Below, piece by piece: positions 22,571-47,282 of a stretch of 64,000 bases of DNA. Every line of letters begins with the position of its first letter. Position 1 is the stretch's first letter. Under the pieces are notes generated by a model that was not told where the DNA came from, ran no database searches, and worked only from the letters and a program-made list of their open reading frames with translations. Made by a program: the position numbers and the translations under genes. Source of the stretch: an uncultured Gammaproteobacteria bacterium (lineage in GTDB: Bacteria > Pseudomonadota > Gammaproteobacteria > UBA9214); NCBI GenBank assembly GCA_963748215.1, contig CAVVHS010000009.1, forward strand, positions 288,001 to 352,000. Direction: 5' to 3'.

Positions 22571-22646
22571 GGGTCGTTAGCTCAGTTGGTAGAGCACCGG
22601 ACTTTTAATCCGATGGTCGTTGGTTCGAATCCAACACGACCCACCA
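22571..22646 (+). tRNA. tRNA-Lys(TTT), intact; integration target
   Basis: 76 nt GGGTCGTTAGCTCAGTTGGTAGAGC...CTTTTAA...GGTTCGAATCC...CGACCCACCA; cloverleaf; encoded CCA. Confidence 0.97.
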
Positions 22647-22689
22647 TTAAATCAATCAGTTACCTCTGATTTTCCAAATCAGTAAAAAC

Positions 22690-22947
22690 TGATTGTGGGG
22701 ATTTTGCGGGGATTAACCGTAAACCTTCCTCGTTGGTAAAATTTCGCCTGTAATAAAATCAATTGGTTGCACGTTAGTAACAGACTCGAACCGTTATTCT
22801 CTGGACCAAAAATCCGATGCTCGTATAAACACGCAGATGTTGTGAAAAATGCATGAGTTTTATCTCGAACTCCATGACATGCATGTATAGATCAATGACT
22901 GTGGTACAGATATGTAACCCGCCATTCAATGCTTAACCACTATCGCT
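22690..22947. repeat. Conserved island left-end block (258 bp, identical to 30066-30323; diverged shorter copies after 40389 and 47216)
   Basis: Direct comparison; contains TGTGGGGATTTTGCGGGGA and IHF consensus AATCAATTGGTTG. Confidence 0.92.
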
Positions 22948-22961
22948 GGAGGAGAGCCTGT

Positions 22962-23390
22962 ATGAAGAAGATCAAGGAGGTTTTGGATGCCAAGGGTCGT
23001 GATGTACTGTCGATTGCCCCGGAGGCCTCTGTATACGAAGCCGTCACTCTCATGGCCGAGCGGGGAGTCGGGGCGCTGCTGGTGATGGAGGGTGACAGGT
23101 TCGTCGGCCTGGTTGGCGAAAGGGATTGTCTGTTGAAGGTGATGCTGGAAGACCGATCCCCGCGAGAGACCGAGGTCAAACAATTAATGGCGAAAAATAT
23201 TCTCTGCGTCAAACCCGAGCAGACGGTGGAGGAAGGGATGGCCTTGATGACCGATAAAAGAATCCGCCATCTACCGGTCGTCAAAGGAGATCGGGTGGAA
23301 GGCATCATTTCCATCGGTGACCTGGTCAAGGCGATTATTGCCGACCAGCAGTTTGTGATTAAACAGCTGGAACACTACGTCACCAGCTGA
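22962..23390 (+). CDS. CBS domain-containing protein
   Basis: RBS GGAGG; two CBS repeats, RIRHLPVV, IISIGDLVK. Confidence 0.9.
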   Translation: MKKIKEVLDAKGRDVLSIAPEASVYEAVTLMAERGVGALLVMEGDRFVGLVGERDCLLKVMLEDRSPRETEVKQLMAKNILCVKPEQTVEEGMALMTDKRIRHLPVVKGDRVEGIISIGDLVKAIIADQQFVIKQLEHYVTS

Positions 23391-23495
23391 CTCAAGGCTG
23401 AACGCGCTCTAAAGCCGTACATGTCCGGGTTCGATGCCTGGAAAAAGCAATGCCGAGGCTGCCATCACCGTGACCACGGCCAGGAACACCAGCAG

Positions 23496-24605
23496 CTAAC
23501 GGTTACCGGCGTAGCCGCTGAGTTCCAGGTAACCTCTGCCAGTGTGACTGCCGGATACATCGACCGCGCCTTCCCAGTAACGCACGCTGTGATCCATCTG
23601 CTGATCATCAAGCAATGCCTGGACTTCAAGATCCAGCTGAAACCCGTCCACCTGCAGGCGCCAGCTAACCGGATAGCGCGCACCGTCTTCGGCCTGCCAG
23701 TAACGCAAGGGTGTGAGCTTTACCTGGTCGGGCAGCAGGGTGCGAACGCCGCCGTCTTTTTCCACCAGGCTGCCACGGCTGAACGGGTGCGCCTCGCCCT
23801 GCTTGTTGCGCAGCTGGTAGTACATCACCTCTCGGCCATCATCCAGTTGCAGGGCAAACCAGTCCCATCCGGCCTGGGTCCTGTCAAGCGCGGAGCTGGA
23901 CCACTCGTGATCCATCCACGAATCGCCCTGCACGGTGTAAACCGTATCGCCAGTGCGCAGCTCGCCGCGTGTCGGCAGACGCGTAAAAGAATAGTAGTAA
24001 GAGGCATTGCCGGGTGTTGCACTTTTGCGCGACAAGCCGTGATCGCCCTGCAGGACCAGTGGCTTGTCGCCTGACTGCAGTTGCAGCGAAAAACCGGTGT
24101 CCTCGTTCTGCGCCGATACGGTCAACGGAAACAGGCCGGTATCCGCATGCATCGACCAGGGCCCCAGCCACACTTCATACGGCGCTACGCGGGCGCCGGC
24201 GAGGCCTGCCGCCGCGCGTGCAAAACGTTCGGCCGAATAATGCCTGGCTTCGTCGATGTCGCTGATCGCCATGTGCCCCATGTAGATCTGGTTGGTTCGC
24301 CACATCGAATCCTTTACAGGTTCCCCGGGGCGCAGCCCGACACGAAACAGCGTGAACTGGTAACCGAACCGACGCCCGCTTTCACTCTGCAGATTACCTG
24401 TCAGGTACCACCACTCGGTGGCGAATTCGGGATGTGCGCCGTGATCCTGCGGGAACTGGAAATCCCGTGGTTCAAGCGCACGCGCAAAACCGGGATCAGG
24501 TTCCGCTCCCAGCACCTGGTCCACGCGCACCATCGGCGCGGTTGCCGGCGGCCCTGTTTCGCAGGCCGATACAAGCAACGCCAGCAACAGCAGCAGGCAG
24601 CGCAC
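23496..24605 (-). CDS. AttH/CrtC-like lipocalin-domain lipoprotein
   Basis: Lipobox LVSAC, FPQDHGAHPEFATEWWYLTGNL, SWMDHEWSS, YWEGAV. Confidence 0.85.
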   Translation of the reverse strand: MRCLLLLLALLVSACETGPPATAPMVRVDQVLGAEPDPGFARALEPRDFQFPQDHGAHPEFATEWWYLTGNLQSESGRRFGYQFTLFRVGLRPGEPVKDSMWRTNQIYMGHMAISDIDEARHYSAERFARAAAGLAGARVAPYEVWLGPWSMHADTGLFPLTVSAQNEDTGFSLQLQSGDKPLVLQGDHGLSRKSATPGNASYYYSFTRLPTRGELRTGDTVYTVQGDSWMDHEWSSSALDRTQAGWDWFALQLDDGREVMYYQLRNKQGEAHPFSRGSLVEKDGGVRTLLPDQVKLTPLRYWQAEDGARYPVSWRLQVDGFQLDLEVQALLDDQQMDHSVRYWEGAVDVSGSHTGRGYLELSGYAGNR

Positions 24606-24607
24606 TG

Positions 24608-27109
24608 TCAGTCTTCCCTCAGTTGCGGTGCCGGGTCGCGATGCGCGGAACGCCATGCCGGGTAGACAGCGGCAAGCCCCGCAGCCAGCAGCCCGACCAG
24701 CAGCGTCTGCAGCAGCAGCCCGCTATCAACGCTGAATGGCATTGTCCAGCCGAATGCACGCCGTTGCACCGACTGGATCAGGACCCACGCCATGAGCACG
24801 CCGGTGGGAATTGCCACACACGCGGCCAGCAGTCCCATCAGCAAGGACTCGCCGCCGATCAGTCCTGCGATCTGGCCGCGTGTCAGTCCCAGCGCACGCA
24901 ACACGGCATACTCCCTGGCGCGTTCAAGCTGCAGCGCCATCAAGGCGCTCAACACACCGATAAACGCGACAGTCAGGGACACGGCGCGCAACACTTCGGT
25001 GACGCGGAAGGTGCGGTCGAAGACGGCCATGGATTCGTTCAGTATGGCGCCTGCGGGCGTCTGCACGATGGCGTAGCGCGCGGCGAGTTCACTCAAATCG
25101 CGGCGCATTTTATCCACTTCGCCGTTACGCGCAAACAGGGCCAGCGTGTTGACCTGCTGCTCGGGCCAGTACTTGCGGTAGACGGTTTCATCCAGAAAGA
25201 TGCGGCCGTGTTCGCTGGCATAGTCGCGGAATACAGCCGCCACCTGAACGGCCAGAGGGCCTCTGGGTGTTGGCAGTTCCAGGCGCGAGCCGGGCGTCAG
25301 GCCGAGGTGGTAGGCCAGTGGTTCGGAAACCAGCACCGCACCCCTGTCAAATTCCTTCCATGCCGACCGTGCACCGCTCAACAGCACAAAGCCGCGGCGC
25401 GACGGCGCGGCCAGGTGCGCCCCGACGAGTTCCACGCGCCGGCCGGCCAGCGGCAGCTTGCGCTCGCTGTAACGGCTGATCGCCGCCACGGTCCCCAGCC
25501 GGGACACTTCGTGCAGGACGGCTTCAGGCAGATATGCACCTTCATCAAAGCCTTCGGCCGCTACATAGAGGTCTGCACTTAACAGGTCGCTCAGCCAGGT
25601 GTTGACCGAACCACGCATGCTTTCCACCATGACACCGACACCGACGCTGGCTGACAACGCCACCATCAGTGCCGCAACGGCAATACCCAGGCGCGACAAA
25701 TGCCGGTCCAGATCGCGCACGCCCATCCGCCAGATACCGGGCAAGGACGCACGCGCCAGTAGCCGGTACAGCACGCGGATCATCAGGGGTGTCATCATGG
25801 CCGCGCCCAGCACCAGCGCAAACAAGCCGGCAAAGCTCATGATCACGCCGCCCGGTAAAACCAGTGCCAGCAGCAAGCCCGCCGACAACAGCACCAGACC
25901 GAGCAGCGCGCACAGGGGGACGCCGCGCTGCACGGCCTGCTCCAGTGCCGCCCGCGAGAGTGTCGTCAACGGGGGCGTACGTGCGGCTTGCCAGGCGGGC
26001 ACCAGTGTCGCCAGCAGGGTCGCCACCACGCCCAGGCTGGCGGCGATCAACAGTGACCTCCAGTCCAGGTGCAGGGCCGTCACGCTGACCGTGTAGTAAA
26101 GGTCGCTGACGGTAGCCGCCACCAACCGGGTCAGCCCCTGGCCCAGCCACACACCGAGCAATATCCCGATCAGCGTGCCGAGCACGGCAACGATCGCGGC
26201 TTCCAGCAGGATCAGGCTGAACAGTTCCCGCGGCGTCACACCGATGGCGCGCAGCCGCCCGAACAGGTTGCGCCGCTGCACCATGGAAAAGGTCATGGCG
26301 TTGAAAATAAGAAACATGCCGACCAGCAGCGCCAGCAGGCTCATCGCGGTGAGGTTGAGCTCGAATGCCGCTGACAGGCGTGTCACACCCTGCGCCTGTT
26401 CGGCGACTGTCTGCAACTGCACGCCGGCGGGGATGCGCTGCCTGACCCAGCGTTCGCCGGCGGCATCCAGTATCAGGTCCACGTAGCTGAGTTGCCCGTT
26501 CATCTCCAGAATGGATTTGGCGGTGGCGATATCGACCAGCAGCAGGTCGTCACCGGCAGTGCTGTGCCGCGTATCGATACGCAGCACATCGAGCATGGTG
26601 GACCTGCCCCGGTGAACGATGTCCAGCCTGTCACCTGCAGCGACATCGAGCGCGCGCGCCGTTGCCGCGCCAAGCACCAGCGCACCTGCCTGTGTCAGCC
26701 AGTCTGCGGTGAAGCCCGCGCCGGTCGACACCTCGGCAAGCTGACTGCGGAACGGCGCCTCGGCAAACAGGTCAAAGCCCACCAGGTGATAACGTCCCGT
26801 GCCGCCTTCGACCCTGACCCAGCCGCTCACCACCGGCGCCATGGGCGGTGCGCCGGGCTGGCGTTGCAGGCTGATATACACCTCATCGGGTAGCTCGGCG
26901 CCGGGCACGGCAAGGCGATGTGTGGCTTCGCCCTGCAACTGTCGCGCGGACAGCTCGAAGGCGGCACGCGCACCGCTGTTGGCCAGGTCCACCGCCAGTA
27001 CCACCGCAACACCCAGTGCGATGCCGGACAAGGCCAGCAGACCCTGCCAGCGATGGCGCAACATATAGCGCAGTCCGGCACGCAACAGCAATGGCGAGAA
27101 ATATCTCAC
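24608..27109 (-). CDS. FtsX/MacB-like ABC permease (AttG-like)
   Basis: Two FtsX repeats, GIALGVAVVLAV, RLRAIGVT, VLRALGLT. Confidence 0.88.
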   Translation of the reverse strand: MRYFSPLLLRAGLRYMLRHRWQGLLALSGIALGVAVVLAVDLANSGARAAFELSARQLQGEATHRLAVPGAELPDEVYISLQRQPGAPPMAPVVSGWVRVEGGTGRYHLVGFDLFAEAPFRSQLAEVSTGAGFTADWLTQAGALVLGAATARALDVAAGDRLDIVHRGRSTMLDVLRIDTRHSTAGDDLLLVDIATAKSILEMNGQLSYVDLILDAAGERWVRQRIPAGVQLQTVAEQAQGVTRLSAAFELNLTAMSLLALLVGMFLIFNAMTFSMVQRRNLFGRLRAIGVTPRELFSLILLEAAIVAVLGTLIGILLGVWLGQGLTRLVAATVSDLYYTVSVTALHLDWRSLLIAASLGVVATLLATLVPAWQAARTPPLTTLSRAALEQAVQRGVPLCALLGLVLLSAGLLLALVLPGGVIMSFAGLFALVLGAAMMTPLMIRVLYRLLARASLPGIWRMGVRDLDRHLSRLGIAVAALMVALSASVGVGVMVESMRGSVNTWLSDLLSADLYVAAEGFDEGAYLPEAVLHEVSRLGTVAAISRYSERKLPLAGRRVELVGAHLAAPSRRGFVLLSGARSAWKEFDRGAVLVSEPLAYHLGLTPGSRLELPTPRGPLAVQVAAVFRDYASEHGRIFLDETVYRKYWPEQQVNTLALFARNGEVDKMRRDLSELAARYAIVQTPAGAILNESMAVFDRTFRVTEVLRAVSLTVAFIGVLSALMALQLERAREYAVLRALGLTRGQIAGLIGGESLLMGLLAACVAIPTGVLMAWVLIQSVQRRAFGWTMPFSVDSGLLLQTLLVGLLAAGLAAVYPAWRSAHRDPAPQLRED

Positions 27110-27114
27110 GGCAT

Positions 27115-27852
27115 TCAGTCTGCCGCTACCTGCCCGTGGCTCAGACGCAGAACCCGGTCGGCCGCCTGAGCAACATATGTGCTATGCGTTACCAGCAGCA
27201 TGGTCGTTCCCTGCCGCCTGGCCAGGCCGGTGAGCAACTCGATGATCCGGCCGGCGCTATCCTCATCCAGGTTGCCGGTGGGCTCGTCGGCCAGCAACAG
27301 GTCGGGCCGGTGCACCAGCGCGCGGGCGATGGCGGCGCGCTGCTGTTCACCGCCCGACAGTGTTTCGGGAAAACGATGCTCCAGACCGCCGAGTCCGACA
27401 TCTTCCAGCAGATCGGCAGCGCGTTGTTGCGCTGCGGAATTGGCATTACCCAGCAGTTCCAGCGGCAGGGCAATATTCTCACCCACCGTCAGGGTCTGGA
27501 TAAGGTTGAAAAACTGGAATACGAAACCGATACGCCGGCGCCGCAACAGGGTGCGTTCGGGTTCCGCCAGTGCGTGTACATCGACACCGTCCAGCCACAC
27601 GTTACCGCTGTCTGGGCTGTCGATACCGCTGATCAGGTTGAGCAGGGTCGTCTTGCCACTGCCACTGGCCCCCAGCAAGGCAACCGTTTCGCCTTTCCCG
27701 ACGCTGAACGTCAGCCTGTCGAATACCACTTGTCGCGTGCTGCCGGACCAGTACACCTTGGCTAGATTGTCGACACCTACCATGCTCACCTGGATACTGC
27801 CCGCGTTGCCAAACAATTCCGTTGACATCATACACTGCTGCACGTCATGCAC
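27115..27852 (-). CDS. ABC transporter ATP-binding protein (LolD/MacB-type); true start may be downstream (e.g. 27783)
   Basis: GASGSGKT, GFVFQFFNL, LSGGEQQR, LADEPTGNLD. Confidence 0.9.
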   Translation of the reverse strand: MHDVQQCMMSTELFGNAGSIQVSMVGVDNLAKVYWSGSTRQVVFDRLTFSVGKGETVALLGASGSGKTTLLNLISGIDSPDSGNVWLDGVDVHALAEPERTLLRRRRIGFVFQFFNLIQTLTVGENIALPLELLGNANSAAQQRAADLLEDVGLGGLEHRFPETLSGGEQQRAAIARALVHRPDLLLADEPTGNLDEDSAGRIIELLTGLARRQGTTMLLVTHSTYVAQAADRVLRLSHGQVAAD

Positions 27853-27963
27853 TTACCCCTGTGCCAGGAGGGGACCGGGGTCCACTTCAATGAATAGAGA
27901 ATAGGGGACAAACCGCGTTTTTCAATACGGAAGAATAGGGGACAGACCACGTTTAGGGAAGAA

Positions 27964-28801
27964 TAGGAAGAATAGGGGACAGACCACGTTTTTCAATCTG
28001 ATTTGGCGGGTCTTCCCGGGTTTCTACGTGTAACACGTCGTTGCAGCATGTGGGAGATCTCAGACTTAAAGCGTTCATTACCCAGAGCATAGTTACCATG
28101 CGAAGCAGTCCGGATCTCGGCAAGCAGATCGGGGTCTATAGCTGTGTGAAACAGGCCACGGTAATTGGCAAGACGCGTTTCTTCACTCCCTCCGAGTGCC
28201 AGGTATTCTGCGTGTGGCGTCAGGCCGTCGTGCTGTGCGCCTTGACCGTTAATCCTGTAACTTGACCACTGATATTCTGCCGGGTGCTCTACCATGACTG
28301 CGCGAACCGGGTTCAATTCGATATATCGGTAACAGGCAAGTACATAGTGACTTTCCTGAACCAGACAGGAGCGAAAACGGCCTTCCCAAAGCGTTCCGCT
28401 GCGCTGGTAGCGACGGTTACTGTATTGGACGTAACGCTGACCAAGCTGTTTCATGAGCAGAGCGGCGCTATCACGCGCTGCTGGGGTAAGGAGCAGGTGT
28501 ACATGATTCGTCATCAGGCACCAGGCATGTACACTGCAACGATATCTAGCGCCCTGCTCAGCCAGGGTATCAAGGTAATACTGGTAATCGCAGTTGTCGT
28601 AGAAGCAGGGGCTGCGATTATTGCCGCGCTGGATGATATGCCAGGGAATGCCAGGAATGACCAGGCGGGCACGGCGTGGCATAAGAATAACCTTGTTCAA
28701 TTTAGAGTAAGAGTTGAATGGTGAATGCATGAATACGGCGGTTATGTAGTGAATGTGCGTGAAGGTGCGTCAGTAATTGACGAAAACGTGGTCTGTCCCC
28801 C
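27964..28801 (-). mobile_element. Y1/HUH transposase element, copy 1, with 18-bp inverted repeats
   Basis: GGGGACAGACCACGTTTT (27975-27992) / AAAACGTGGTCTGTCCCC (28783-28800); extra left-end copies at 27904 and 27938; identical to 45297-46134. Confidence 0.88.
27993..28682 (-). CDS. REP-associated tyrosine transposase-like (Y1_Tnp, IS200/RAYT superfamily)
   Basis: MPRRARL...HIIQRGNNR, HUH motif LMTNHVHLL, LWEGRF, YIELNPVRA. Confidence 0.92.
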   Translation of the reverse strand: MPRRARLVIPGIPWHIIQRGNNRSPCFYDNCDYQYYLDTLAEQGARYRCSVHAWCLMTNHVHLLLTPAARDSAALLMKQLGQRYVQYSNRRYQRSGTLWEGRFRSCLVQESHYVLACYRYIELNPVRAVMVEHPAEYQWSSYRINGQGAQHDGLTPHAEYLALGGSEETRLANYRGLFHTAIDPDLLAEIRTASHGNYALGNERFKSEISHMLQRRVTRRNPGRPAKSD

Positions 28802-28809
28802 TTTTTCAG

Positions 28810-29054: not shown

Positions 29055-29453
29055 CTATTTGTCGGCCAAACTTTCCCACAAGCCTCTGGGTGTGATTATG
29101 GGTAGCCCTTCCACGCTTTCCAAATTCAATAAGGCCTTATCTCCTGTGACGAACACATTGGCGTTGCCCGCCAGCGCGGCGGCAAGAATTGCTTCGTCAT
29201 CAGGATCAGGAAGTTTCGGCAAAGGGTGTTCGGCGGCTATAACCTGACCCTCTGTGCGGAGTAGTGCAATAAAGCCATTAGTGATCGCTTCTGTCTGACC
29301 CAGTTTTTCTGGGAGGATGCGTTGTAGTTCTCTAAAGACGGCTTCGGAGATTAATAGATCGTGGGACTGGAGAACCACTTCAAAGAGTTCAGCGCACAGT
29401 CCACGTGTTGTCAAGGCGCTGGCCAATACATTGGTATCCAGAAATATCCGCAC
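29055..29453 (-). CDS. PIN-domain toxin (VapC-like)
   Basis: RIFLDTNVLASA, DPDDEAIL, FVTGDKALL. Confidence 0.9.
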   Translation of the reverse strand: MRIFLDTNVLASALTTRGLCAELFEVVLQSHDLLISEAVFRELQRILPEKLGQTEAITNGFIALLRTEGQVIAAEHPLPKLPDPDDEAILAAALAGNANVFVTGDKALLNLESVEGLPIITPRGLWESLADK

Positions 29454-29665: not shown

Positions 29666-29780
29666 GGGGTCCTCCAAGCAAAGAAGTTTATCTGTATTAC
29701 ATTGTAGTACAGCGACGGGCGGGGAGACAGCCTTTAATGCGGATTACTGGTTTAATGACAGAAAAGGTGCTGAAAATGCC

Positions 29781-30088
29781 TGCGGGAGTTTTGCGGGACT
29801 GGGTGCAGCACCGTTATGCACGGTACTGCATTTTAGGCAACGGACGCCCCGGTATTATGTTATATAAAACAATTAGATAGGTCGTGATTCTCGGACTTTT
29901 AATCCGATGGTCGTTGGTTCGAGCCGAGGACGACGCAGTCGGCCGAGACAACAGCGTCGCATCAGCGACGCTGACCCCGAAGGGGCGAGGGCGCAGCCCG
30001 AGTAATCCAACACGACCCACCATTAAATCAATCACTTAATTCCGATTTTTCATCCCGGTAAAAATTGATTGTGGGGATTTTGCGGGGA
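29781..30088 (+). repeat. Island junction 1: arm repeat, tRNA-Lys 3' half (29892-30022) with 82-nt T-loop insertion (29923-30004), IHF site, arm repeat
   Basis: CGGACTTTTAATCCGATGGTCGTTGGTTCGA[82 nt]ATCCAACACGACCCACCA, matching the tRNA outside the insert. Confidence 0.93.
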
Positions 30089-30315
30089 TTAACCGTAAAC
30101 CTTCCTCGTTGGTAAAATTTCGCCTGTAATAAAATCAATTGGTTGCACGTTAGTAACAGACTCGAACCGTTATTCTCTGGACCAAAAATCCGATGCTCGT
30201 ATAAACACGCAGATGTTGTGAAAAATGCATGAGTTTTATCTCGAACTCCATGACATGCATGTATAGATCAATGACTGTGGTACAGATATGTAACCCGCCA
30301 TTCAATGCTTAACCA

Positions 30316-31617
30316 CTATCGCTCTTCAGGCGCCTTCCAGGATTGTAATCGGTCGAGCGTATCGATGCTGCCGATCAGCTTTCGAGCGCGTCGCAGCCGT
30401 TCCATGGTGTGCTCTCGCTGATCTTTTGGTAAGTCTTCCAATCTCCGTTCTGCGTCAGCGAAGAACGCCTCGAGTTGTTTTGACGTGGCCCATGTTTCGA
30501 TGATCTCGAGCAGTTCCTCTTTGCTGTCTTTAAGGGCCTTTGCGGCACGTCTCTCCGCCTCTTCGCGATGCCATTGCTCCATTTGGGCGGCCCAGCGCTG
30601 GCGCTCCCGTTCTGCTTCGCGTTCGCCTTCTTCAACCAGGCGCGCGATGTCAATCGTGGCTTTGGTCAGCGCGCGTACAATCGCGGGGATTCGGGTGGAG
30701 AGATCGCGATGGTTTGTTTCCCGCCATTGCTGGGTCCATTGCGCGCGCGGGTAGGGTGAATAGGCTTGCAGACATAATCGGCCGGTCGGGAAATCTCGCC
30801 TGCTGGTCCAGCCGCTATCCGCTACATAGCGGCCACGCCGTTGCGGGACGTAGTCACTCACCCGTACATACTCACCTTTGACATAGCGCACCTCGACGTT
30901 CTCGGACAGCTCGATGATGGTAAGACCAATCGCGACGGTCCCGATATAGACGACGGTGCTGCGCTGCGGTGACCAGAGGTTGTTGTAATGGTGTTGTTTC
31001 TCCGGATGCTCCCGTTCATCGACTGTTGCCCTGTGAAATTGCTCTGTATTCGGTGCGATGAGTACCCGGTGCCCGCGCGTTTCCAGTGCAAGAAAGAGCT
31101 GGTTGGCAAAGGACAGGGCCTTGTCCAGGCCGGTTTTCGTCACAACCAGATCAATGAGCAGCCTTTTCGCGGGCTTCAGGTAGCCTGCGGAATAGGAGAG
31201 CCGGCCTACCTCGAAGTGTGATTTCACCTCGGTGGTCAGCGGATGTCGATCCGGGAGCGGTTGGTGATGTTTGTGTGCTTTGCGGTCTTTCTTGTCCGGT
31301 GGCTTCGGTTGCGGTCGTGCGCGCCTGGGTGGTGTGCCATCGCGTGACCACTCGAGTGGATCGCCGGGTCGCGCTTCCGGGAAGGCTGGCTGTGTGGATG
31401 CCTTACCGACTGCCAGTTTTGCCCAATAGCCGCGCTCAGGTCGTGGCACGTTGAGCTGGGTACAGACCCGGGCCATGTAGCTTGATGAAACACCGAACCG
31501 GGCCGCCACCTTGAGCATCGGCTCGGCCCAGACGAGTGCGTACAGCGCTTCCCGTGTGACTTTCGAGTCGTCTTGCGTGGGGTCTGGTGGTGAGTGCTTA
31601 CCGTTTCCGGGATTCAC
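30316..31617 (-). CDS. Hypothetical protein with N-terminal HTH-like region and C-terminal coiled coil
   Basis: 433 aa; TREALYALVWAEPMLKVAARFGVS...PRPERGYWAK; cotranscribed after abiEii. Confidence 0.8.
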   Translation of the reverse strand: MNPGNGKHSPPDPTQDDSKVTREALYALVWAEPMLKVAARFGVSSSYMARVCTQLNVPRPERGYWAKLAVGKASTQPAFPEARPGDPLEWSRDGTPPRRARPQPKPPDKKDRKAHKHHQPLPDRHPLTTEVKSHFEVGRLSYSAGYLKPAKRLLIDLVVTKTGLDKALSFANQLFLALETRGHRVLIAPNTEQFHRATVDEREHPEKQHHYNNLWSPQRSTVVYIGTVAIGLTIIELSENVEVRYVKGEYVRVSDYVPQRRGRYVADSGWTSRRDFPTGRLCLQAYSPYPRAQWTQQWRETNHRDLSTRIPAIVRALTKATIDIARLVEEGEREAERERQRWAAQMEQWHREEAERRAAKALKDSKEELLEIIETWATSKQLEAFFADAERRLEDLPKDQREHTMERLRRARKLIGSIDTLDRLQSWKAPEER

Positions 31618-31654
31618 GATACTGTTCCAACCGCAGCGAGATCAGCGCACTACA

Positions 31655-33180: not shown

Positions 33181-33249
33181 GGGCCAAATGTTACATTACC
33201 TCGGGGAATATGCAAATACCCCGAGGTATCGTAACATCAACTTTGGCCC
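33181..33249. promoter_or_regulatory. Long inverted repeat upstream of abiEi (probable autoregulatory operator)
   Basis: ATGTTACATTACCTCGGGG-12 bp-CCCCGAGGTATCGTAACAT, extended by GGGCCAAA/TTTGGCCC. Confidence 0.7.
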
Positions 33250-33386
33250 AGTCAGGACATGAAGCCGCGCTGAGGGCTGAGTGAACTCGGGTAATATCTG
33301 GAGAGCTAATTACGCGAAGCAAGGGGGATTCATGGAGATTTTCCGGGCAGGTGATTGATGAATTGCGTAAGGGAAGCTAGACGATC

Positions 33387-38500: not shown

Positions 38501-38873
38501 GCACGAACACTATTCCGACTCGGGCGGGAAGTCAGGTGGTCAGAAGGAGAAGCTCGCCTACACCATCCTGGCCGCCAGTCTGGCCTATCAATTTGGGCTG
38601 GAATGGGGAGCAGTGCGCTCGCGATCGTTCCGCTTCGTGGTGATTGATGAGGCATTCGGGCGTGGCTCGGATGAGTCCGCGCAATACGGCCTACGGCTGT
38701 TCGCGAAACTCAATCTGCAACTGTTGATCGTCACACCCCTGCAGAAAATCCACATCATAGAGCCCTTCGTTAACAGTGTCGGTTTTGTCCACAACGAGGA
38801 CGGCCGAGCCTCCATGCTACGCAATCTCACCATCGAGGAGTACCGGGAGGAGAGAGCGAGGGCTGTCCAGTGA
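35496..38873 (+). CDS. jetC: Wadjet JetC, SMC-like ATPase
   Basis: YNWGTFD, Walker A GDIGSGKS, long coiled coils, KSGGQKEK signature, VVIDEAF. Confidence 0.92.
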
Positions 38874-40078
38874 ACTGGACCGGTCCCCGTGAACTGCATG
38901 TGCAATTACTGCGCTGTTGGAATCGCGGTGATCTGCTGACCGGAATGGTTTCCGGTGAATCAATATTCCCCCAACGATTGACATTGAAAGCACCCACATC
39001 CGCACAGATGACGGATGACTTCGACAAGGTGCGCGACTGGATCGCCGCCTTACGCTCACTGCCACACTACCGGATCGAGATGCGCGAGGTGCGTCATCGG
39101 GTACTCGGCGCAAACGAGGTGCCGGCGGCAGTCTGGGTGGATACTCTCGACGATGCCCTGGCCATATTGGGTAAATCCCGTGAGGCCAAACGTTTCGCGA
39201 GTATGGTCGAGCGTACTCGACTGCGGCAACCTCTGCTGCTCGAATGGCTTGCCTGCAAGCCGCTCAAGGCGCACGAGTTGGCTGAGGTCTGGGATCGGCT
39301 CCTGGATGTAACCGAGTGGGTCCAGCAGCACCCTCGTCCGGGCATATACCTGCGACAGATTGATATCCCCGGAGCCCATAGCAAATTCATCGAGGCACAC
39401 AGGGGCGTTCTGCTCCAGTGGCTGGACCGGCTCTTGCCGCCTGAGGCTGTCAATAACAGTGCCACTGGCGTCTCCGGGTTTGCCAGCCGGTACGGATTTC
39501 GTGACAAGTCCCAGCGTATTCGTCTGCGTGCGCTAGATCCCGAGCATGCACTATTACCGCGGTCGGTGAATGCGGACATTACTCTGGATGCTGAAAGCTT
39601 TGACTCCCTGTCGCCTGCAGTTTCACGGGTATTTATCACGGAGAATGAGATCAATTATCTGGCTTTCCCGCCGGTGCCAGACAGCCTGCTGATATTCGGC
39701 GCCGGTTACGGTTTTGAGGTGCTGGCACAAGCTGCATGGTTGGCTAGCTGCCAGGTGTATTACTGGGGTGACATTGATACACACGGTTTCGCGATACTGG
39801 ATCAGCTGCGCGCATATCTGCCCCATGCGCATTCCCTTTTAATGGACCGTGATACGCTACTGGCCTTCAAGGCCCAATGTGGCAGGGAGGAAAAACAGAC
39901 GCTTCGGGACTTGTCTCGCCTGAATACTGAGGAGCGCGCACTGTACGATGACCTGAGAGACAACCGTCTGGGCAAGAATTTGCGCCTGGAGCAGGAACGC
40001 ATCGGATTCGGCTGGGTCGAGAATGCACTGGCTTTATTGCTGTCTCGCAAGCAGATTTCCAGCATGGAAAATGGTTGA
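38870..40078 (+). CDS. jetD: Wadjet JetD Toprim nuclease (DUF3322/DUF2220)
   Basis: [38 protein letters not shown]. Confidence 0.9.
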
Positions 40079-40149
40079 GGGTACAGGAGGAAGAGCTGGC
40101 CCTGCGCGGACCTTCCAGCATTTTGTCTGTATTGCTGTCGCCATTCCTC

Positions 40150-40455
40150 TGTGGGAGTTTTGCGGGACTCGGTTATGCATCGTCCTGCATCGTGGTGCAC
40201 AGATCGCAACGGGCGCTACGGTAAGTTGTTGAATAAAAAGGCTGAAAAATCGCCTTTCTGTACTTTTAATCTGATGGTCGTTGGTTCGAGCCGAGGACGA
40301 CGCAGTCGGCCGAGACAACAGCGTCGCATCAGCGACGCTGACCCCGAAGGGGCGAGGGCGCAGCCCGAGTAATCCAACACGACCCACCATTAAATCAATC
40401 ACTTAATTCCGATTTTTCATCCCGGTAAAAATTGATTGCGGGGATTTTGCGGGGA
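40150..40455 (+). repeat. Island junction 2: tRNA-Lys 3' half (40262-40389) with 82-nt insertion (40290-40371) and flanking arm repeats
   Basis: Same architecture as junction 1; insert identical. Confidence 0.93.
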
Positions 40456-40586
40456 TTAACCGCAAATCTTCTCCATTAACATAATCTCGCCCGTAGTAAA
40501 TTCAATTGCTTGCGCGTCAGCAACCGATTCGAACTGTCGTTTCCTGGACCAAAAAATCCGCTGCTCGTAATCGTGTAAGGGTTCAT

Positions 40587-41585: not shown

Positions 41586-41610
41586 CCGCTGATACAACGG
41601 GGCAAGGGGC

Positions 41611-44600
41611 ATGAAGACAGTCAGCTGCGCGCTATGGTTTATATTGATCCTTGCCCCGTTCCTGCCGGTAACCCCGGCCTGGCCGGCTGATACAACATCC
41701 GCCATTGTTACCGCCGACAAGCTGAATGCCAGGCTCAAGGAAGTCGAGGCGGCAACGTCCCTGGATGAGGCGAGCAGGGACACTCTGACTGGATTACTCA
41801 ACAATGCACTGGGCAACCTGGAGACGATCCGTGCCAACAAGGCCACCACGGAGACCTATATCCAGGCTGTGAAAACTGCACGGCAACAGGCCAGTGAGAT
41901 CCGTGCGCGGCTGGACAAGGACATCCAGGCCGATCGAGAGGTGACGGTCACTGCCACGGAAGCCTCTCCTTTCGAGGAGATTGAGCAGGAACTGTTGCAG
42001 GAAAAGGCCAATCTTGCGGCCGTGCAGGCCAAGCTTTCTGACCTTGAGTCGCAGCTGGAAGCGTCTAAAGCCCGGCCGTCAATTGCACAGCAACAGCTGC
42101 TTGCTGCGGAGCGGGAAATAGAAGAGATTGAATCAACACGCAAGTCGCCGGTGGCCGAGGATGAACTGCCCTGGGCAACGGAGGCACGTCAGTGGGCGCA
42201 GACCACCCGGGTCGCTGCACTGCGCAGCAAGAATGTCATGCTTGACCAGGAGCTGCTGAGCATGCCGATGCGGATCGCGTTGCTCGAGGCGCAGCGCGAC
42301 CGGAGCCGCTACACGGTTGAGCGGGTTGCCGTCAGGGTCAAACGGCTGGCTGCATTGGCAAGTCGCCAGTTGGGAACGGAGGCGGAGCAGGCAGGGGCCG
42401 CAGCCAGGCAGGCAGTCCTGGATGCCGCCGGAAAACATCCGCTGGTTCAGGATCTGGCTGAACAGAACGCTGCCCTGTCCGATGAAATCAGTACCCTGGC
42501 GACGGAACTCAAGCAACACGGTTCCAGTAACGAGACACTCACGGAGGAGTCGGAACGTATCGAGGAAAACTTCCGCACTGCCAGGGAAAAGCTCGAGGTG
42601 GCAGGGTTGACCGACGTGCTGGGCCAGGTACTGCGGCAGCAACAGCGGGCATTACCGGACCAGCGCATGCTCGAAAAGAGAATCAGGGAACTCGAACAGG
42701 ATAATGCCCGGTCCACACTGCGCCAGATCCAGTACGCTGCCGAATACAAGGGCCTGCGCAGCATCAAGGACTATGTCAGGGAGCGTACTGCCGGACTCGA
42801 GGCGGCCGAGGCTGAACAGGCGGGTGCGGATATGACGGAACTCGCCAGCGCCCGGCGCGTGTTGCTCGAAAACGCGATCAGCCTCGGCAAGTCCACTTCG
42901 AGGACACTGACGGAGCTTGAAACGGGTAACCGCCGCCTGCTCGAGACGACGGCGGATTTCGACAACCTGCTTGCAGAAAAACTGCTCTGGATCCGCAGTA
43001 ACCCGCGGCCGGACCTGGCGACCCTGCAGGCCATTCCCGTGCAGGTTGTCGGGCTGGTGTCCCCGGCAAGCTGGCTTGGCGTCTACAGAACACTCGCTGA
43101 CCGTGTGGTGCGCTCGCCAGTGTTCGTGCTGTTGCTTGGCCTGGTCGGGATCCTGCTCTTCAGGGTGCGCCGGTTACTGGCGTTGCTCAGGGAGACGGGC
43201 AATACGATCGGCAAACCGTCGCGGGATAAATTCTCGTTCACGTTCAAGGCACTCGGCCTGACCCTGTTGCTGGCAGTGCCCTTGCCATTACTGCTGGCTG
43301 TAACAGGCTGGGAACTCGGATCGGTAGCGGAGGCGACGCAATTTTCCAGGGCGGTTTCTGAGGCACTGTTTCAGGTTGCACCCACATTCCTGTACCTGCA
43401 GTTTTTCAGAATGTTGTGTGTCCATGGTGGTGTTGCCGAACGGCATTTTCGCTGGCCTGAATCGATGACTAAACAACTGCGGCGTGGATTCAGATGGTTG
43501 ATGGCAGTTCTTCTGCCGGCCATTTTTATTCTCGTGCTGCTCTTAAATGATAAAGAGCAGCAAGTTTTTCATGCCGGGCTGGAGCGCCTCGTCATGGCCG
43601 TGGCGCTGGTTGCGTTGGCGGTATTTTTCTACCGCTTGACCGGGTTGCTGGTCGAACACTCAATCGGACCCGTGATGCGCCTGCGCTACCTGTGGGTGAC
43701 GCTGACCGTGGGCACCCCCCTGGTGCTGGCTGGACTGGCGCTCGATGGGTTTCTGTATACGGCCGGCACGCTGGGGCGCAGCCTGGTAGAAACCCTGTGG
43801 TTTGTCTTCGGTCTGGTTGTGCTGCACCAGGTGGTGGTGCGCTGGCTGTTGCTGGCACAGCGGCGGCTGGCTCTGCAGGCCAGACACAAGCGCATGCGTG
43901 CCGCGCAGGATGAGAAAGCGCCGGTCGACTCCGGGATGGAGGGTATGCCGGCCATGGCAGATGAACCGGAAATCGACCTGGTCGTGATGAGCGAGGAAAG
44001 CCGCAAGCTGCTCAATATGCTGCTGGTGATTATCGGTGTTGTCGGTTTCTGGCAGATCTGGTCCGAAGTCCTGCCGGCATTCAGGGTGCTTGACGAGATT
44101 GTGCTCTGGCACCACACGGTGGTGGTCGCCGGTGAGGAGACCTTTGCCCCGGTGTCGCTGGCAGATTTCGGGTTGGCCCTCCTGATTGCCATCGTGACCT
44201 ACGTCGCGATGAAACGCCTGCCGGCAGTGCTGGAAATCGTGCTGTTGCAGCGCGTCAACATGACTTCGGGTGCGCGCTACACCGTCACCACGCTCTACAC
44301 TTATTTAATCGTGGGCATTGGCCTGCTGGCCTTTTTCAATGTCATTGGTGCCGACTGGTCGAAGCTGCAGTGGCTGTTCGCGGCCCTGGGCGTGGGCATC
44401 GGTTTCGGCCTGCAGGAAATCGTGGCCAATTTCATCAGCGGCCTGATTATCCTGTTCGAACGCCCCATCAGGATCGGGGATGTGGTCACCGTCGGTGATA
44501 CCAACGGCGTGGTCACCCGTATCCAGATCCGTGCGACCACGATACGCACCTGGGACCGGCAGGAACTGCTGGTGCCCAACAAGGAATTCATTACCGGGCG

Positions 44601-44982
44601 ACTGCTCAACTGGTCGCTGTCGGACCAGACGACCCGCATCAAGGTTGCTGTGGGTGTGGCATATGGCAGTGATGTGTCACGGGCCATGGCGTTGATGTAC
44701 GAGGCCGCGCTGGAAAATGAACACGTGCTTGCCGAGCCTGCACCGTCAATCATATTCGTGGCCTTCGGCGACAACTCGCTCAACCTGGTATTGCGCTGCT
44801 TCGTCGGTACGCAGGATATCCGCATGACCGCGCTCACGCAGCTGCACGAGGCGATCAACAGGAAGTTCAACGACGCCGGAATCTGTATCGCGTTTCCACA
44901 GCGCGATGTGCACCTGGATGCCTCGCAGCCGCTGGAGGTGCGTATCCGCCATGATGATGCTGCGGGAGAGGCCGCTTCCTGA
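41611..44982 (+). CDS. MscK/KefA-like mechanosensitive channel
   Basis: Signal peptide, long periplasmic coiled coil, TM region, WSKLQWLFAALGVGIGFGLQEIVANFISGLIILFERPIRIGD, IAFPQRDVHL. Confidence 0.92.
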   Translation: MKTVSCALWFILILAPFLPVTPAWPADTTSAIVTADKLNARLKEVEAATSLDEASRDTLTGLLNNALGNLETIRANKATTETYIQAVKTARQQASEIRARLDKDIQADREVTVTATEASPFEEIEQELLQEKANLAAVQAKLSDLESQLEASKARPSIAQQQLLAAEREIEEIESTRKSPVAEDELPWATEARQWAQTTRVAALRSKNVMLDQELLSMPMRIALLEAQRDRSRYTVERVAVRVKRLAALASRQLGTEAEQAGAAARQAVLDAAGKHPLVQDLAEQNAALSDEISTLATELKQHGSSNETLTEESERIEENFRTAREKLEVAGLTDVLGQVLRQQQRALPDQRMLEKRIRELEQDNARSTLRQIQYAAEYKGLRSIKDYVRERTAGLEAAEAEQAGADMTELASARRVLLENAISLGKSTSRTLTELETGNRRLLETTADFDNLLAEKLLWIRSNPRPDLATLQAIPVQVVGLVSPASWLGVYRTLADRVVRSPVFVLLLGLVGILLFRVRRLLALLRETGNTIGKPSRDKFSFTFKALGLTLLLAVPLPLLLAVTGWELGSVAEATQFSRAVSEALFQVAPTFLYLQFFRMLCVHGGVAERHFRWPESMTKQLRRGFRWLMAVLLPAIFILVLLLNDKEQQVFHAGLERLVMAVALVALAVFFYRLTGLLVEHSIGPVMRLRYLWVTLTVGTPLVLAGLALDGFLYTAGTLGRSLVETLWFVFGLVVLHQVVVRWLLLAQRRLALQARHKRMRAAQDEKAPVDSGMEGMPAMADEPEIDLVVMSEESRKLLNMLLVIIGVVGFWQIWSEVLPAFRVLDEIVLWHHTVVVAGEETFAPVSLADFGLALLIAIVTYVAMKRLPAVLEIVLLQRVNMTSGARYTVTTLYTYLIVGIGLLAFFNVIGADWSKLQWLFAALGVGIGFGLQEIVANFISGLIILFERPIRIGDVVTVGDTNGVVTRIQIRATTIRTWDRQELLVPNKEFITGRLLNWSLSDQTTRIKVAVGVAYGSDVSRAMALMYEAALENEHVLAEPAPSIIFVAFGDNSLNLVLRCFVGTQDIRMTALTQLHEAINRKFNDAGICIAFPQRDVHLDASQPLEVRIRHDDAAGEAAS

Positions 44983-45050
44983 CGCATCGTTCGTCGCAGT
45001 GAAAAATGAATTCATCCCGCCTTCGCGACACGGTCAGGATGTCCGGTACT

Positions 45051-45185: not shown

Positions 45186-45296
45186 GCTAAATCGGGGCTA
45201 CGCGGATGCCGGTTAGCCGATCTTCCCGATGCTGGCCTGCGCGATCTGATATTGGCGTTAAATGGCCAGATAAGCTCCCGCGAACAGCCTAAAGAC

Positions 45297-46134
45297 TAGG
45301 AAGAATAGGGGACAGACCACGTTTTTCAATCTGATTTGGCGGGTCTTCCCGGGTTTCTACGTGTAACACGTCGTTGCAGCATGTGGGAGATCTCAGACTT
45401 AAAGCGTTCATTACCCAGAGCATAGTTACCATGCGAAGCAGTCCGGATCTCGGCAAGCAGATCGGGGTCTATAGCTGTGTGAAACAGGCCACGGTAATTG
45501 GCAAGACGCGTTTCTTCACTCCCTCCGAGTGCCAGGTATTCTGCGTGTGGCGTCAGGCCGTCGTGCTGTGCGCCTTGACCGTTAATCCTGTAACTTGACC
45601 ACTGATATTCTGCCGGGTGCTCTACCATGACTGCGCGAACCGGGTTCAATTCGATATATCGGTAACAGGCAAGTACATAGTGACTTTCCTGAACCAGACA
45701 GGAGCGAAAACGGCCTTCCCAAAGCGTTCCGCTGCGCTGGTAGCGACGGTTACTGTATTGGACGTAACGCTGACCAAGCTGTTTCATGAGCAGAGCGGCG
45801 CTATCACGCGCTGCTGGGGTAAGGAGCAGGTGTACATGATTCGTCATCAGGCACCAGGCATGTACACTGCAACGATATCTAGCGCCCTGCTCAGCCAGGG
45901 TATCAAGGTAATACTGGTAATCGCAGTTGTCGTAGAAGCAGGGGCTGCGATTATTGCCGCGCTGGATGATATGCCAGGGAATGCCAGGAATGACCAGGCG
46001 GGCACGGCGTGGCATAAGAATAACCTTGTTCAATTTAGAGTAAGAGTTGAATGGTGAATGCATGAATACGGCGGTTATGTAGTGAATGTGCGTGAAGGTG
46101 CGTCAGTAATTGACGAAAACGTGGTCTGTCCCCC
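45297..46134 (-). mobile_element. Y1/HUH transposase element, copy 2
   Basis: Identical to 27964-28801; IRs at 45308-45325 and 46116-46133. Confidence 0.88.
45326..46015 (-). CDS. REP-associated tyrosine transposase-like (Y1_Tnp)
   Basis: Protein identical to 27993-28682. Confidence 0.92.
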   Translation of the reverse strand: MPRRARLVIPGIPWHIIQRGNNRSPCFYDNCDYQYYLDTLAEQGARYRCSVHAWCLMTNHVHLLLTPAARDSAALLMKQLGQRYVQYSNRRYQRSGTLWEGRFRSCLVQESHYVLACYRYIELNPVRAVMVEHPAEYQWSSYRINGQGAQHDGLTPHAEYLALGGSEETRLANYRGLFHTAIDPDLLAEIRTASHGNYALGNERFKSEISHMLQRRVTRRNPGRPAKSD

Positions 46135-46220
46135 CCCCTTTTTCTTTTTTCAGAGACCAGTTGTTAGAGATCTAAACAGGTGCTATTGTTAGACCAGTTA
46201 ATGGCCCATTTGGAACTGGT

Positions 46221-46490
46221 ATGAGCACGAAATTTTCAGAGGATGTCATTCCTCTTACCGACCTGAAAACCAACCCCGGTCGTGTGGTGAAACATGTCTC
46301 GGATGCGCATCGGCCGGTACTTGTTACCAGCCGTGGTCGCGGTGTTGCCGTGGTCCAGTCCGTGGCCGATTATGAACAAACACAGGAGGACTGCGCCTTC
46401 ATGCGCGCGGTTGTGGAGGGCCTGGCGGATCTGGAGGCAGGACGGGAAGTTTCACTTGTGGAAGCCAGGAAGCGGCTGGGACTGAAATAG
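46221..46490 (+). CDS. Phd/YefM-family antitoxin
   Basis: DVIPLTDLKTNPGRVV, PVLVTSRGRGVAVVQS. Confidence 0.9.
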   Translation: MSTKFSEDVIPLTDLKTNPGRVVKHVSDAHRPVLVTSRGRGVAVVQSVADYEQTQEDCAFMRAVVEGLADLEAGREVSLVEARKRLGLK

Positions 46491-46494
46491 ATCA

Positions 46495-46812
46495 ATGCCG
46501 CGGATTGTTATCAGCTTCTCGGAGTCGGCATTGCGCGATCTCGAGGAGATAAAGGCATGGTATGTGGAGCAGGGCGTGTCCGATATCGGTGAACGGTTGG
46601 TAGCTGAGGTCTTTCAACGGGTCGAGACGCTTGCCGAACATACCGACATAGGCCGGACAGTCCCCGAATTTGAGCAATCATTCCTCCGGGAGTTGATTCA
46701 TCCGCCATTTCGACTTGTCTACCGTCACGATACGAAGCGTGTGAGGGTTGTGCGTATCTGGCGCAGTGAACGGCTGCTGCGTCTCGATCCGGATTCGAAG
46801 ACTTCAGGGTAA
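46495..46812 (+). CDS. RelE/ParE-family toxin
   Basis: ISFSESALRDLEEI, GRTVPE, RELIHPPFRLVYR. Confidence 0.9.
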   Translation: MPRIVISFSESALRDLEEIKAWYVEQGVSDIGERLVAEVFQRVETLAEHTDIGRTVPEFEQSFLRELIHPPFRLVYRHDTKRVRVVRIWRSERLLRLDPDSKTSG

Positions 46813-46976
46813 ATCGTCGGGTCTTTATGACGCACTGGCACAGAACGCGTGTGTGTGAAGAATTGTTGCTCGTGCGGCTATGAGCAGTTTGAATTGTATT
46901 GGCTCTCTAGTAACCCGGGGTGGTTCATACAGTGCATTGTTGCTCTGGTCTTGGGCCAGATATAGGCAAACGACCC

Positions 46977-47282
46977 TGTGGGGATTTTGCGGGGATCAGT
47001 TTTGCATTGTTATGCATCGTGGTGCACAGTGTGCAACGGGCGCCACGGTAAGCTGTTGAGATTAAAAGCGTAAAAATGCTTTTTCTGTCCTTTTAATTCG
47101 ATGGTCGTTGGTTCGAGCCGTGGACGACGCAGTCGGCCGAGACAACAGCGTCTCATAGGCGACGCTGACCCCGAAGGGGCGAGGGCGCAGCCCGAGTAAT
47201 CCAACACGACCCACCATTAAAACAGTCACTTCCCTCTGATTTTTCATCCCGGTAAAAATGGATTGTGGGGATTTTGCGGGGA
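46977..47282 (+). repeat. Island junction 3: tRNA-Lys 3' half (47090-47216) with 82-nt insertion (47117-47198) and flanking arm repeats
   Basis: Same architecture; insert differs from the other two at four positions. Confidence 0.92.

Follow-up and report, generated by a model that had tools for sequence, protein, structure and literature searches.

The stretch of DNA considered here, the window, comprises 64,000 nucleotides of contig C9 from G000, the genome of an uncultured gammaproteobacterium (G000:C9:288001-352000), and in it a tRNA-Lys(UUU) gene at 22571-22646 heads a tandem array of multigene units separated from one another by partial copies of that same gene. It is at once the sole tRNA gene in the window and the only tRNA-Lys(UUU) of the genome, both according to ARAGORN. 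To its left lie QueC and sulfur-transport genes that are syntenic in relatives, one of which, G018, has a near-empty site wherein the homolog of the right flank follows 2.7 kb after tRNA-Lys. The units on its right have GC contents of 0.50-0.62 as against 0.636 for the left flank, which indicates a foreign composition.

A first-pass annotation, made from the letters of the window alone, had drawn attention to four copies of an anticodon-loop heptamer, CTTTTAA, at 22602, 29896, 40263 and 47090. These are real: the heptamer occurs eight times in the window against an expectation of 2.03 (none of 100 shuffles reached eight), and the four named copies, all on the plus strand, stand in register within a 46-nt four-copy repeat family with spacings of 7294, 10367 and 6827 nt, as well as inside repeat families of 185-300 nt. 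The three complete units and the open-ended fourth that it delimited hold for the window, but the array continues past it. A blastn search of the genome with one junction as the query located nine attachment-site (att)-like copies enclosing eight units on C9:310571-408789, i.e., 98.2 kb reaching from window position 22571 to window-equivalent 120789, of which the window holds 3.5 units. The copies start on C9 at 310571 (the tRNA gene), 317892, 328262, 335090, 360684, 362371, 375480, ~400530 and ~408557, and in the last of them (copy 9) the homology ends at the tRNA 3' end. The contents of the units, as named by Pfam on the open reading frames (ORFs) of all eight, are as follows.

Unit 1, 7.2 kb: ABC transporter, AttH-type lipocalin
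Unit 2, 10.4 kb: 433-aa protein, AbiE, Wadjet
Unit 3, 6.8 kb: MscK-type channel
Unit 4, 25.6 kb: ion-homeostasis cluster, Mrp antiporter genes
Unit 5, 1.7 kb: FKBP isomerase
Unit 6, 13.1 kb: subunits of adenosine 5'-phosphosulfate (APS) reductase
Unit 7, 25.2 kb: large Ig-repeat protein, GGDEF-EAL protein, ABC and HlyD components
Unit 8, 8.2 kb: split copper ATPase, broken resistance-nodulation-division (RND) pump

The contention that homologous ends enclose unrelated cargo is borne out: the arms at the unit ends are complete, and Pfam confirms an ABC/FtsX system with an AttH-type protein, AbiEi/AbiEii with JetABCD, an MscK-type channel and a LysR/Na+-H+ cluster.

Anatomy of the junctions

Alignment of the nine copies shows the junction to be a composite of about 0.45 kb, consisting of a P arm, the 3' half of tRNA-Lys from the anticodon loop onward, and a P' arm; each unit ends in a P' arm on the left and a P arm on the right, and the arms are collinear across the nine copies. 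Those within the window are:

22571-22646, plus strand: functional tRNA-Lys(UUU), att copy 1 (ARAGORN; Rfam tRNA model, 76.7 bits)
22647-22830, plus strand: P' arm of unit 1, with the motif GGGGATTTTGCGGGGA at 22697-22712 followed by an inverted degenerate tRNA-Lys at ~22740-22830 (minus strand)
29778-30212, plus strand: junction 2, made of the P arm of unit 1, core and left part of the tRNA 3' half at 29896-29922, insert at ~29922-30005, tRNA 3' end to 30022, P' arm of unit 2
40145-40580, plus strand: junction 3, made of the P arm of unit 2, core at 40263-40289, insert at 40289-40372, tRNA 3' end to 40389, P' arm of unit 3
46972-47400, plus strand: junction 4, made of the P arm of unit 3 (motif at 46980), core at 47090-47116, insert at 47116-47199, tRNA 3' end to 47216, P' arm of unit 4 (motif at 47267)

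The P arm (~150 nt) opens with GGG(A/G)NTTTTGCGGGA and contains a GCAACGG(G/A)CG box, while the P' arm (~190 nt) bears GGGGATTTTGCGGGGATTAAC about 50 nt past the tRNA end. The motif GGGGATTTTGCGGG stands in both arms, to which the P arm adds a GCAACGGGCG box, and these motifs together with the box are kept in seven of the eight P arms, which fall into at least three subtypes 56-64% identical to one another. The direct repeat runs from the anticodon loop to the 3' end of the tRNA, as in tRNA islands of the anticodon-loop type, and the boundaries of the units match att anatomy exactly. The P arms also match those of integrase-bearing islands located at other tRNAs in other taxa (loci L052, L058, L050, L046 and L016); two of these, L052 and L058 at tRNA-Phe, display the same motif and the same GCAACGGGCG box, with the core likewise beginning in the anticodon loop. 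Since the tRNA-Phe integrase islands share both the P-arm boxes and the point at which the repeat starts, the junctions are, to judge by their sequence, genuine att sites of a tyrosine-integrase family of the anticodon-loop type. A scan of genome_contigs with a 21-nt pattern of the motif returned five loci against about four expected by chance (our own estimate); L007, L005 and L008 among them are informative, with the arm motif of L008 lying within the 3' end of a tyrosine-integrase gene, and L006 and L009 resemble chance matches.

Copy 1 is an intact tRNA gene, but copies 2-9 are more than plain tRNA halves, each carrying an insert of 83-84 nt in the T loop. The first-pass annotation had further taken the att ends for intact. 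This is not borne out: all eight pseudo-copies have the insert, and the 7-nt core, unaltered in copies 2, 3, 4 and 6, is mutated in the remaining four (copies 5, 7, 8 and 9).

The integrase family and its absence from the array

Relatives of the integrase were gathered from 557 stretches of public genomes confirmed by tblastn, 80 loci of which were kept. They are plain PF00589 proteins of ~360-375 aa (Pfam), and in 66 of the 80 loci the 3' end of the integrase gene lies about 70 nt from the tRNA gene, tail to tail with it, the targets of the family being tRNA-Phe, Lys, Arg, Met, Gln and Asn. At tRNA-Lys(UUU) this arrangement is found in two sister genomes, G014 (L010) and G003 (L011), where the integrase gene follows directly after the motif; at the same tRNA-proximal att site no integrase is present in any of the eight units of the array.

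This absence extends to the units as a whole. No integration or transfer gene was detected in any of the eight with Pfam on ORFs, recombinase profiles and family hidden Markov models (HMMs), and on the earlier statement that the units lack tyrosine and serine recombinases, Pfam, PF00589, the serine profiles and the family HMM agree. Over the six frames of the genome, the serine-recombinase profiles PF00239 and PF07508 have no match, and PF00589 has five (two Xer-like proteins, one gene on C2 and two fragments), none of them on C9. The family-specific HMM, for which 54 of the 80 integrases were used, has ten matches at E <= 10 over the same six frames, again with none on C9; the best of these, C5:1429-2647, is near full length, frameshifted, placed tail to tail with tRNA-Arg(ACG), and the best-preserved copy of the family in the genome, and the others are fragments, such as those at C6:890392 (tRNA-Pro), C6:48893 and C8:211501. 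An HMM of the C-terminal part of the integrase, run in all frames over the 600 nt to the right of each copy, reached no better than E 0.63 (Z = 54). Degraded integrases, one per unit, had been named beforehand as what would speak for decayed ordinary islands; none is detectable in any unit even with the family-specific HMM. In five relatives, the PF00589 matches on att-bearing contigs are two short fragments only (G012:C382 and G015:C141).

The proposal that one shared integrase, encoded beyond 64 kb or elsewhere, moved the units in trans can accordingly be retained in part: no functional one exists on the contig or in the genome, but the cognate integrase is found in G014 and G003, and a shared enzyme acting in trans is a plausible part of the array's past.

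At tRNA-Pro(GGG), C6:879451-890637, the genome has another array of this kind, of lesser size. Within it are a P-arm match (884439-884503), a fragment from the C terminus of an integrase (890392-890517) and, near 884.2 and 879.5 kb, two 3' pseudo-copies of tRNA-Pro with RtT-type inserts.

The integrase-less P' arm

Conserved blocks are common to 13 P' arms drawn from six genomes and stop sharply at GGACCAAAAATCCG(A/G)TGCT. On the opposite strand, the distal part of the arm aligns with positions 21-61 of tRNA-Lys (from position 9 in L007), with scores of 31-32 as compared to 13.5 +/- 2 for shuffles, none of 500 of which reached them (L019, L020 and L022a). The signal is weaker in G000, with a score of 20 in four copies (reached by 1-14 of 500 shuffles) and none in copies 6 and 7. 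These alignments show that an inverted, decayed tRNA-Lys copy occupies the place taken by the integrase gene in G014 and G003. The arm has no Rfam match at E <= 10. Since the reverse strand of its motif codes for NPRKIP, like the C-terminal tail of some members of the family, a decayed integrase was also considered for this place; it is ruled out by the result of the C-terminal HMM and by the identification of the region as an inverted tRNA copy.

This integrase-less end is common to seven of the eight units, and it extends to public sequences. A census with the tRNA 3' end plus the arm motif as the query recovered 19 loci with 21 sites in genome_contigs, about four of which loci look unrelated (Ideonella, Thioalkalivibrio, Scandinavium and Endozoicomonas), and 27 loci with 27 sites in metagenome_contigs, five of which contigs leave less than 400 nt of room beside the site. 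An integrase abuts one of the former (L122, on a G014 contig) and none of the latter, so that 47 of the 48 scanned sites are without one; an integrase-family fragment lies 2.6 kb away in one metagenome locus. The pseudo-core stands at a fixed distance in 10 of the 21 genome sites and 17 of the 27 metagenome sites. Such uniform ends without remnants argue against eight independent decays, and an end shared by seven of the eight units and by nearly all related public sites points to descent of the units from an integrase-less form.

The T-loop insert and RtT-like elements

In copies 2-4, the insert lies after GGTTCGA and before AATCC. The pseudo-copies align end to end with the Rfam family RtT RNA (RF00391; best 35.8 bits, local E 2.5e-5), the similarity spanning both sides of the same break in the T loop. 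The array copies score 28.7-35.8 bits, below the 45-bit gathering cut-off, and six of the eight are found at E <= 0.01. The genome as a whole has 18 RtT matches at this threshold, seven of them above the cut-off (45.9-61.2 bits) and all seven beside tRNA-Glu, Gln or Ser. At E <= 1e-4, RtT is detected in 21 of 24 sampled genomes of the genus, in one of 16 genomes of other families, and among 14 control genomes in E. coli alone. A census of the insert by nhmmer yielded 12 matches, mostly Lys copies, the Rfam model being the better tool.

Like the RtT RNA of the E. coli tyrT operon (RF00391), the array copies consist of a partial tRNA 3' portion with the T loop broken after TTCGA, followed by a related hairpin-rich insert of ~80 nt and ending in the tRNA 3' end; unlike the canonical copies of the same genome, they are without the 5' acceptor-like strand and the GATGAGAAC linker, and they sit within att junctions. 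Junctions free of the insert are known from L007, G051, G015 and most metagenome sites, and the insert is therefore secondary. If the crossover occurs at the anticodon loop, excision of unit 1 would put the insert into the sole tRNA-Lys(UUU), and the first unit would thereby be locked in place.

Canonical RtT elements of this non-enteric genome lie at C6:381933-382238, C3:218181-218314, C6:476888-477032, C5:12841-12988, C5:191319-191474 and C8:225176-225282. After tRNA-Glu they take the form of 169-nt tandem units made of a terminator, the acceptor-like strand, the linker, an insert-split T arm and the tRNA 3' end. At C8:225112-225300 (minus strand), a near-complete tRNA-Gln(UUG) with an RtT-type T-loop insert lies directly upstream of an intact tRNA-Gln, downstream of which there is a second RtT-like copy. 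A literature search found nothing on the origin of the T-loop nature of RtT; a link between att-site pseudo-tRNAs and RtT-type repeats would offer a lead on the origin of tRNA-linked repeats.

Growth of the array and exchange between species

Along the array, the identity of the insert to that of copy 3 runs 100, 95, 96, 95, 92, 83 and 80%, and the tRNA-derived part (mismatches counted by eye on the printed sequences) has 0-1 mismatches in copies 2-4 and 6 and 5-8 in copies 7-9. This gradient of decay is consistent with growth of the array at its tRNA-proximal end, as has likewise been proposed, in what the preprint sets out, for tycheposon islands (10.1101/2020.12.28.424599). In unit 8, on this order the oldest, a copper P-type ATPase is split into two ORFs and an AcrB-type RND pump is in at least three pieces (C9:400991-403587 and 403532-408371); this unit is decaying.

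Two junctions are mosaic. Copy 2 agrees with copy 3 at 100% identity in its insert and from +1 to +50, and with copy 1 at 100% identity (250/250) from +50 to +300, whereas copies 1 and 2 share only 80% identity over +1 to +50; therefore, either homologous recombination or gene conversion carried the insert along, or unit 1 came in via a homologous crossover in the P' arm. The T stem of copy 5 is chimeric, combining a 5' strand of the host type (GTTGG) with a 3' strand of the type of a sister species (CCTTC).

The att module is present in 21 of 24 sampled genomes of the genus. A fixed order across strains had been named at the outset as a sign of decayed islands; looked at between species, the units differ in both order and content. 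In G051, the homolog of unit 2 is the only unit and has plain attL and attR sites, standing between tRNA-Lys and an attR without the insert, with identities of 85% for the gene of the 433-aa protein, 87% for AbiEii, 93% for JetA, 90% for JetB and 45% for JetD. Core genes flanking the site are ~80-82% identical between G000 and G051, so that unit 2 exceeds them only modestly. G023 has the 433-aa gene immediately after a P' arm. The first gene of unit 7 recurs at 94% identity in L007 behind a junction with another P-arm subtype, and in L110 a ParE 87.5% identical to that of unit 3 adjoins the P arm, together with a unit-7-type ORF.

The low identity of JetD, as against 90-93% for JetA and JetB, is seen in the comparison of L123 (G051:C10 11977-12900) with window positions 38870-40078, and suggests a possible exchange of modules inside the Wadjet defense system.

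Explanations of the array and their consequences

Integrase-less gene blocks are often found stacked at tRNA genes, and it is seldom clear whether such stacks represent debris or a working system. We consider the locus to be probably, if with no great assurance, a 98-kb tandem array of eight non-autonomous islets, akin to cis-mobilizable elements (CIMEs), which was built by accretion at a single tRNA-Lys(UUU) and is now frozen. Each islet would have retained both ends of the anticodon-loop tyrosine-integrase family and none the integrase, whose gene at the P' arm seems to have been replaced in this lineage by the inverted, decayed tRNA-Lys copy. The units would descend from this integrase-less form and have spread as such, depending for their movement on the integrase of a rare autonomous relative; newcomers would enter at the tRNA-proximal end and displace older units outward, as the decay gradient suggests. 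The array is probably frozen now, because the genome has no functional integrase of the family, every displaced half bears the RtT-like insert and half of the cores are mutated, and only homologous recombination between the junction modules would continue to reshape it. That a propagating non-autonomous form is favored over random decay stems from the uniformity of the ends across species, the defined structure in the position of the integrase and the recurrence of units in different contexts.

Several points weigh against this explanation. Movement of the units in trans is something we infer from sequence comparison. No complete integrase was found beside a tRNA-Lys(UUU), that of G014 being cut by a contig end and that of G003 by an IS3 element, and the integrases of L042 and L056, from other taxa, are short or fragmentary. 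Copy 5 is without the common P' arm, and the P' arm of copy 6 has a 45-column gap near its start. Copies 2 and 5 show that homologous recombination has acted at the junctions, and this could alone explain the gain of units. The identities of 85-93% for genes of unit 2, set beside ~80-82% for the core, are compatible with vertical descent and a later insertion of unit 1, and G002 has a unit-4-like block (37-71% identity) near tRNA-Lys with no att copies detected. Finally, the assembly is a metagenome-assembled genome, and 0.45-kb repeats could in principle mislead assembly.

The weight given to homologous recombination in these points can be carried further. The junction modules might serve simply as portable homology, with the units gained, lost and shuffled by RecA-dependent recombination, the 0.45-kb modules being the sites at which circles could be taken up by Campbell insertion or transformed DNA by double crossover, and with an integrase no longer needed; the integrase family would then explain only the distant origin of the modules. 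A single homologous crossover in the P' arm accounts for both the mosaic of copy 2 and the intact tRNA, where an anticodon-loop crossover would require a second event for that copy; the T stem of copy 5 joins two tRNA-Lys alleles; and the genome has no working integrase, with one abutting only 1 of 48 related sites. Yet, the motifs and the GCAACGGGCG box persist in nearly all P arms despite ~60% identity, and in other taxa as well, which fits selection for protein binding better than selection for homology alone. Moreover, subtypes with 56-64% identity are too diverged for efficient RecA recombination, and unit boundaries correspond exactly to att anatomy. We hold this explanation to be rather unlikely. 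It is still less probable that these are ordinary tandem islands which lost their own integrases by decay and owe their uniform P' arm to gene conversion between neighboring junctions. Integrase fragments of the same family do lie at other tRNA sites of the genome (the tRNA-Pro fragment, C6:48893, C8:211501 and the C5 copy at tRNA-Arg), so that the family is subject to decay in this genome, gene conversion between copies is evident, and the tycheposon preprint, as far as it describes them, has tandem elements split by partial tRNAs and degenerate remnants (10.1101/2020.12.28.424599). Independent decay, however, should give varied endpoints, whereas no unit retains an integrase remnant, the pseudo-core recurs at a fixed distance, and the same P' arm with its inverted tRNA is seen in many species and metagenomes, including directly beside a functional tRNA.

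Returning to the CIME-like array, a broader form of the proposal may be entertained as a tentative and rather doubtful possibility: that the genus possesses obligately integrase-less tRNA-Lys cassettes moved by a rare helper integrase, in which the inverted pseudo-tRNA-Lys replaces the integrase and the RtT-type insert marks or locks the displaced halves. If this were true, the cassettes would be helper-dependent entities standing to autonomous islands as miniature inverted-repeat transposable elements (MITEs) stand to transposons, and the locus would amount to a tRNA-anchored cassette platform, stabilized by toxin-antitoxin pairs, that supplies defense and ion-homeostasis genes. Excision of unit 1 at the anticodon loop would leave the only tRNA-Lys(UUU) broken, and the long-unexplained RtT or tRNA-linked repeats would be tied to attachment-site remnants.

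Cargo and neighboring genes

The genes between the junctions of the window are:

22929-27852: cargo of unit 1, i.e., CBS-domain protein, AttH/CrtC-type lipocalin, FtsX/MacB permease and ABC ATPase (Pfam)
27898-28801, minus strand: copy 1 of a REP-associated tyrosine transposase (RAYT) element flanked by repetitive extragenic palindromes (REPs), with a Y1 transposase of 245 aa (gene 27993-28730; Pfam, repeats)
29055-29453, minus strand: PIN-domain toxin gene near the right end of unit 1 (Pfam)
30316-40078: cargo of unit 2, i.e., 433-aa protein, AbiEii/AbiEi and Wadjet JetA-D (33387-40078; Pfam)
41611-44982, plus strand: cargo of unit 3, an MscK-type mechanosensitive channel of 1123 aa (Pfam)
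45292-46134, minus strand: REP-flanked RAYT copy 2 (gene 45326-46063), 99.9% identical to copy 1 (Pfam)
46221-46812, plus strand: Phd/YefM-ParE toxin-antitoxin pair at the right end of unit 3 (Pfam)
47401-64000: first 16.6 kb of the 25.6 kb of unit 4, which ends at window-equivalent 72683

Unit 4 codes for Usp, a Na/Ca exchanger, a LysR/NhaR-like regulator, Na+/H+ exchangers and a P-type ATPase, with the Mrp antiporter genes lying past the window. The cargo, with its Wadjet and AbiE systems, mechanosensitive channel, Na+/H+ and Mrp antiporters, APS reductase and copper efflux, may be seen as the flexible gene set of an environmental bacterium adapted to salt and sulfur.

The 433-aa protein of unit 2 (30316-31617, minus strand) occupies the position of an integrase and reads toward the tRNA. 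It has a motif PRPERGYWAK in its N-terminal region and a coiled-coil-like C-terminal region, and G023 and G051 have it behind the P' arm as well, with 83-85% conservation. Considered as a candidate for a new recombinase, it has no Pfam, NCBIfam or PHROGs match; its relatives in the Atlas are only unnamed clusters of Pseudomonadota.

The two RAYT elements (843 nt, 99.9% identical) are the only copies in the genome, both inside the array in units 1 and 3, and each is found immediately upstream of a toxin-antitoxin module that stands close to its unit's right end. The RAYT genes are ruled out as the mover of the units, the REP-flanked 843-nt elements being unrelated to the att modules. This pair, together with the inverted tRNA-Lys of the P' arm and the T-loop insert, had been left out of the first-pass annotation.

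Comparison with known systems

That annotation had likened the array to an integron. A parallel may indeed be struck with chromosomal integrons, where cargo units lacking recombinases likewise follow one another between repeated recombination sites and toxin-antitoxin pairs lie inside the units. However, the analogy does not hold: the array has no resident intI, attI or Pc, and its head is a tRNA gene; its units measure 1.7-25.6 kb and are multigene, comprising several operons and regulators of their own; and its sites are duplex att sites with arms rather than folded attC sites. The possibility that the direct and inverted tRNA pieces pair into a long, attC-like hairpin was considered and rejected, the predicted folds showing local hairpins only (z-scores -1.65 and -2.72). 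The IntI-type integron integrase gene of the genome lies elsewhere, at C2:97295-98344, and has one internal stop (TGA).

Among tRNA-borne islands, the additive flexible genomic islands of marine bacteria (Alteromonas) comprise a strain-variable stack of cassettes beside a tRNA, bounded by repeats of the tRNA 3' end, and integrases are usually reported in them. The tycheposons of Prochlorococcus, as the preprint outlines them, resemble the array in being stacked beside an island tRNA with partial tRNA copies between them, in newer arrivals pushing older ones inward, and in their adaptive cargo for ion and nutrient transport and defense; in the same outline, they are defined by their own integrase and replication genes, and their remnants include fragmented integrases, in contrast to the units of the array, which have no integrase and uniform ends (10.1101/2020.12.28.424599).

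The closer known concept is CIME-type tandem accretion. CIMEs, in the account given in PMC6323972, have lost integration and transfer genes and kept attL and attR. They and their tandem accretion have been described for the ICESt1/ICESt3 site of streptococci, the elements being arranged in tandem at one attachment site and reliant on the recombinase of a related autonomous element. The units of the array are likewise flanked by attL- and attR-type sites of a known family of integrative elements and without integration or transfer genes. They differ in being eight in number at a tRNA gene of an environmental gammaproteobacterium, with no conjugative helper seen, in having as their integrase-less end a fixed inverted pseudo-tRNA across the genus rather than a one-off deletion, and in junctions that have been further changed by an RtT-like insert. 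The locus is a large and unusually uniform example of a known route of island growth, to which it adds an integrase-less end of defined structure found across the genus, the size of the array and the RtT-type insert in every displaced tRNA half as new features.

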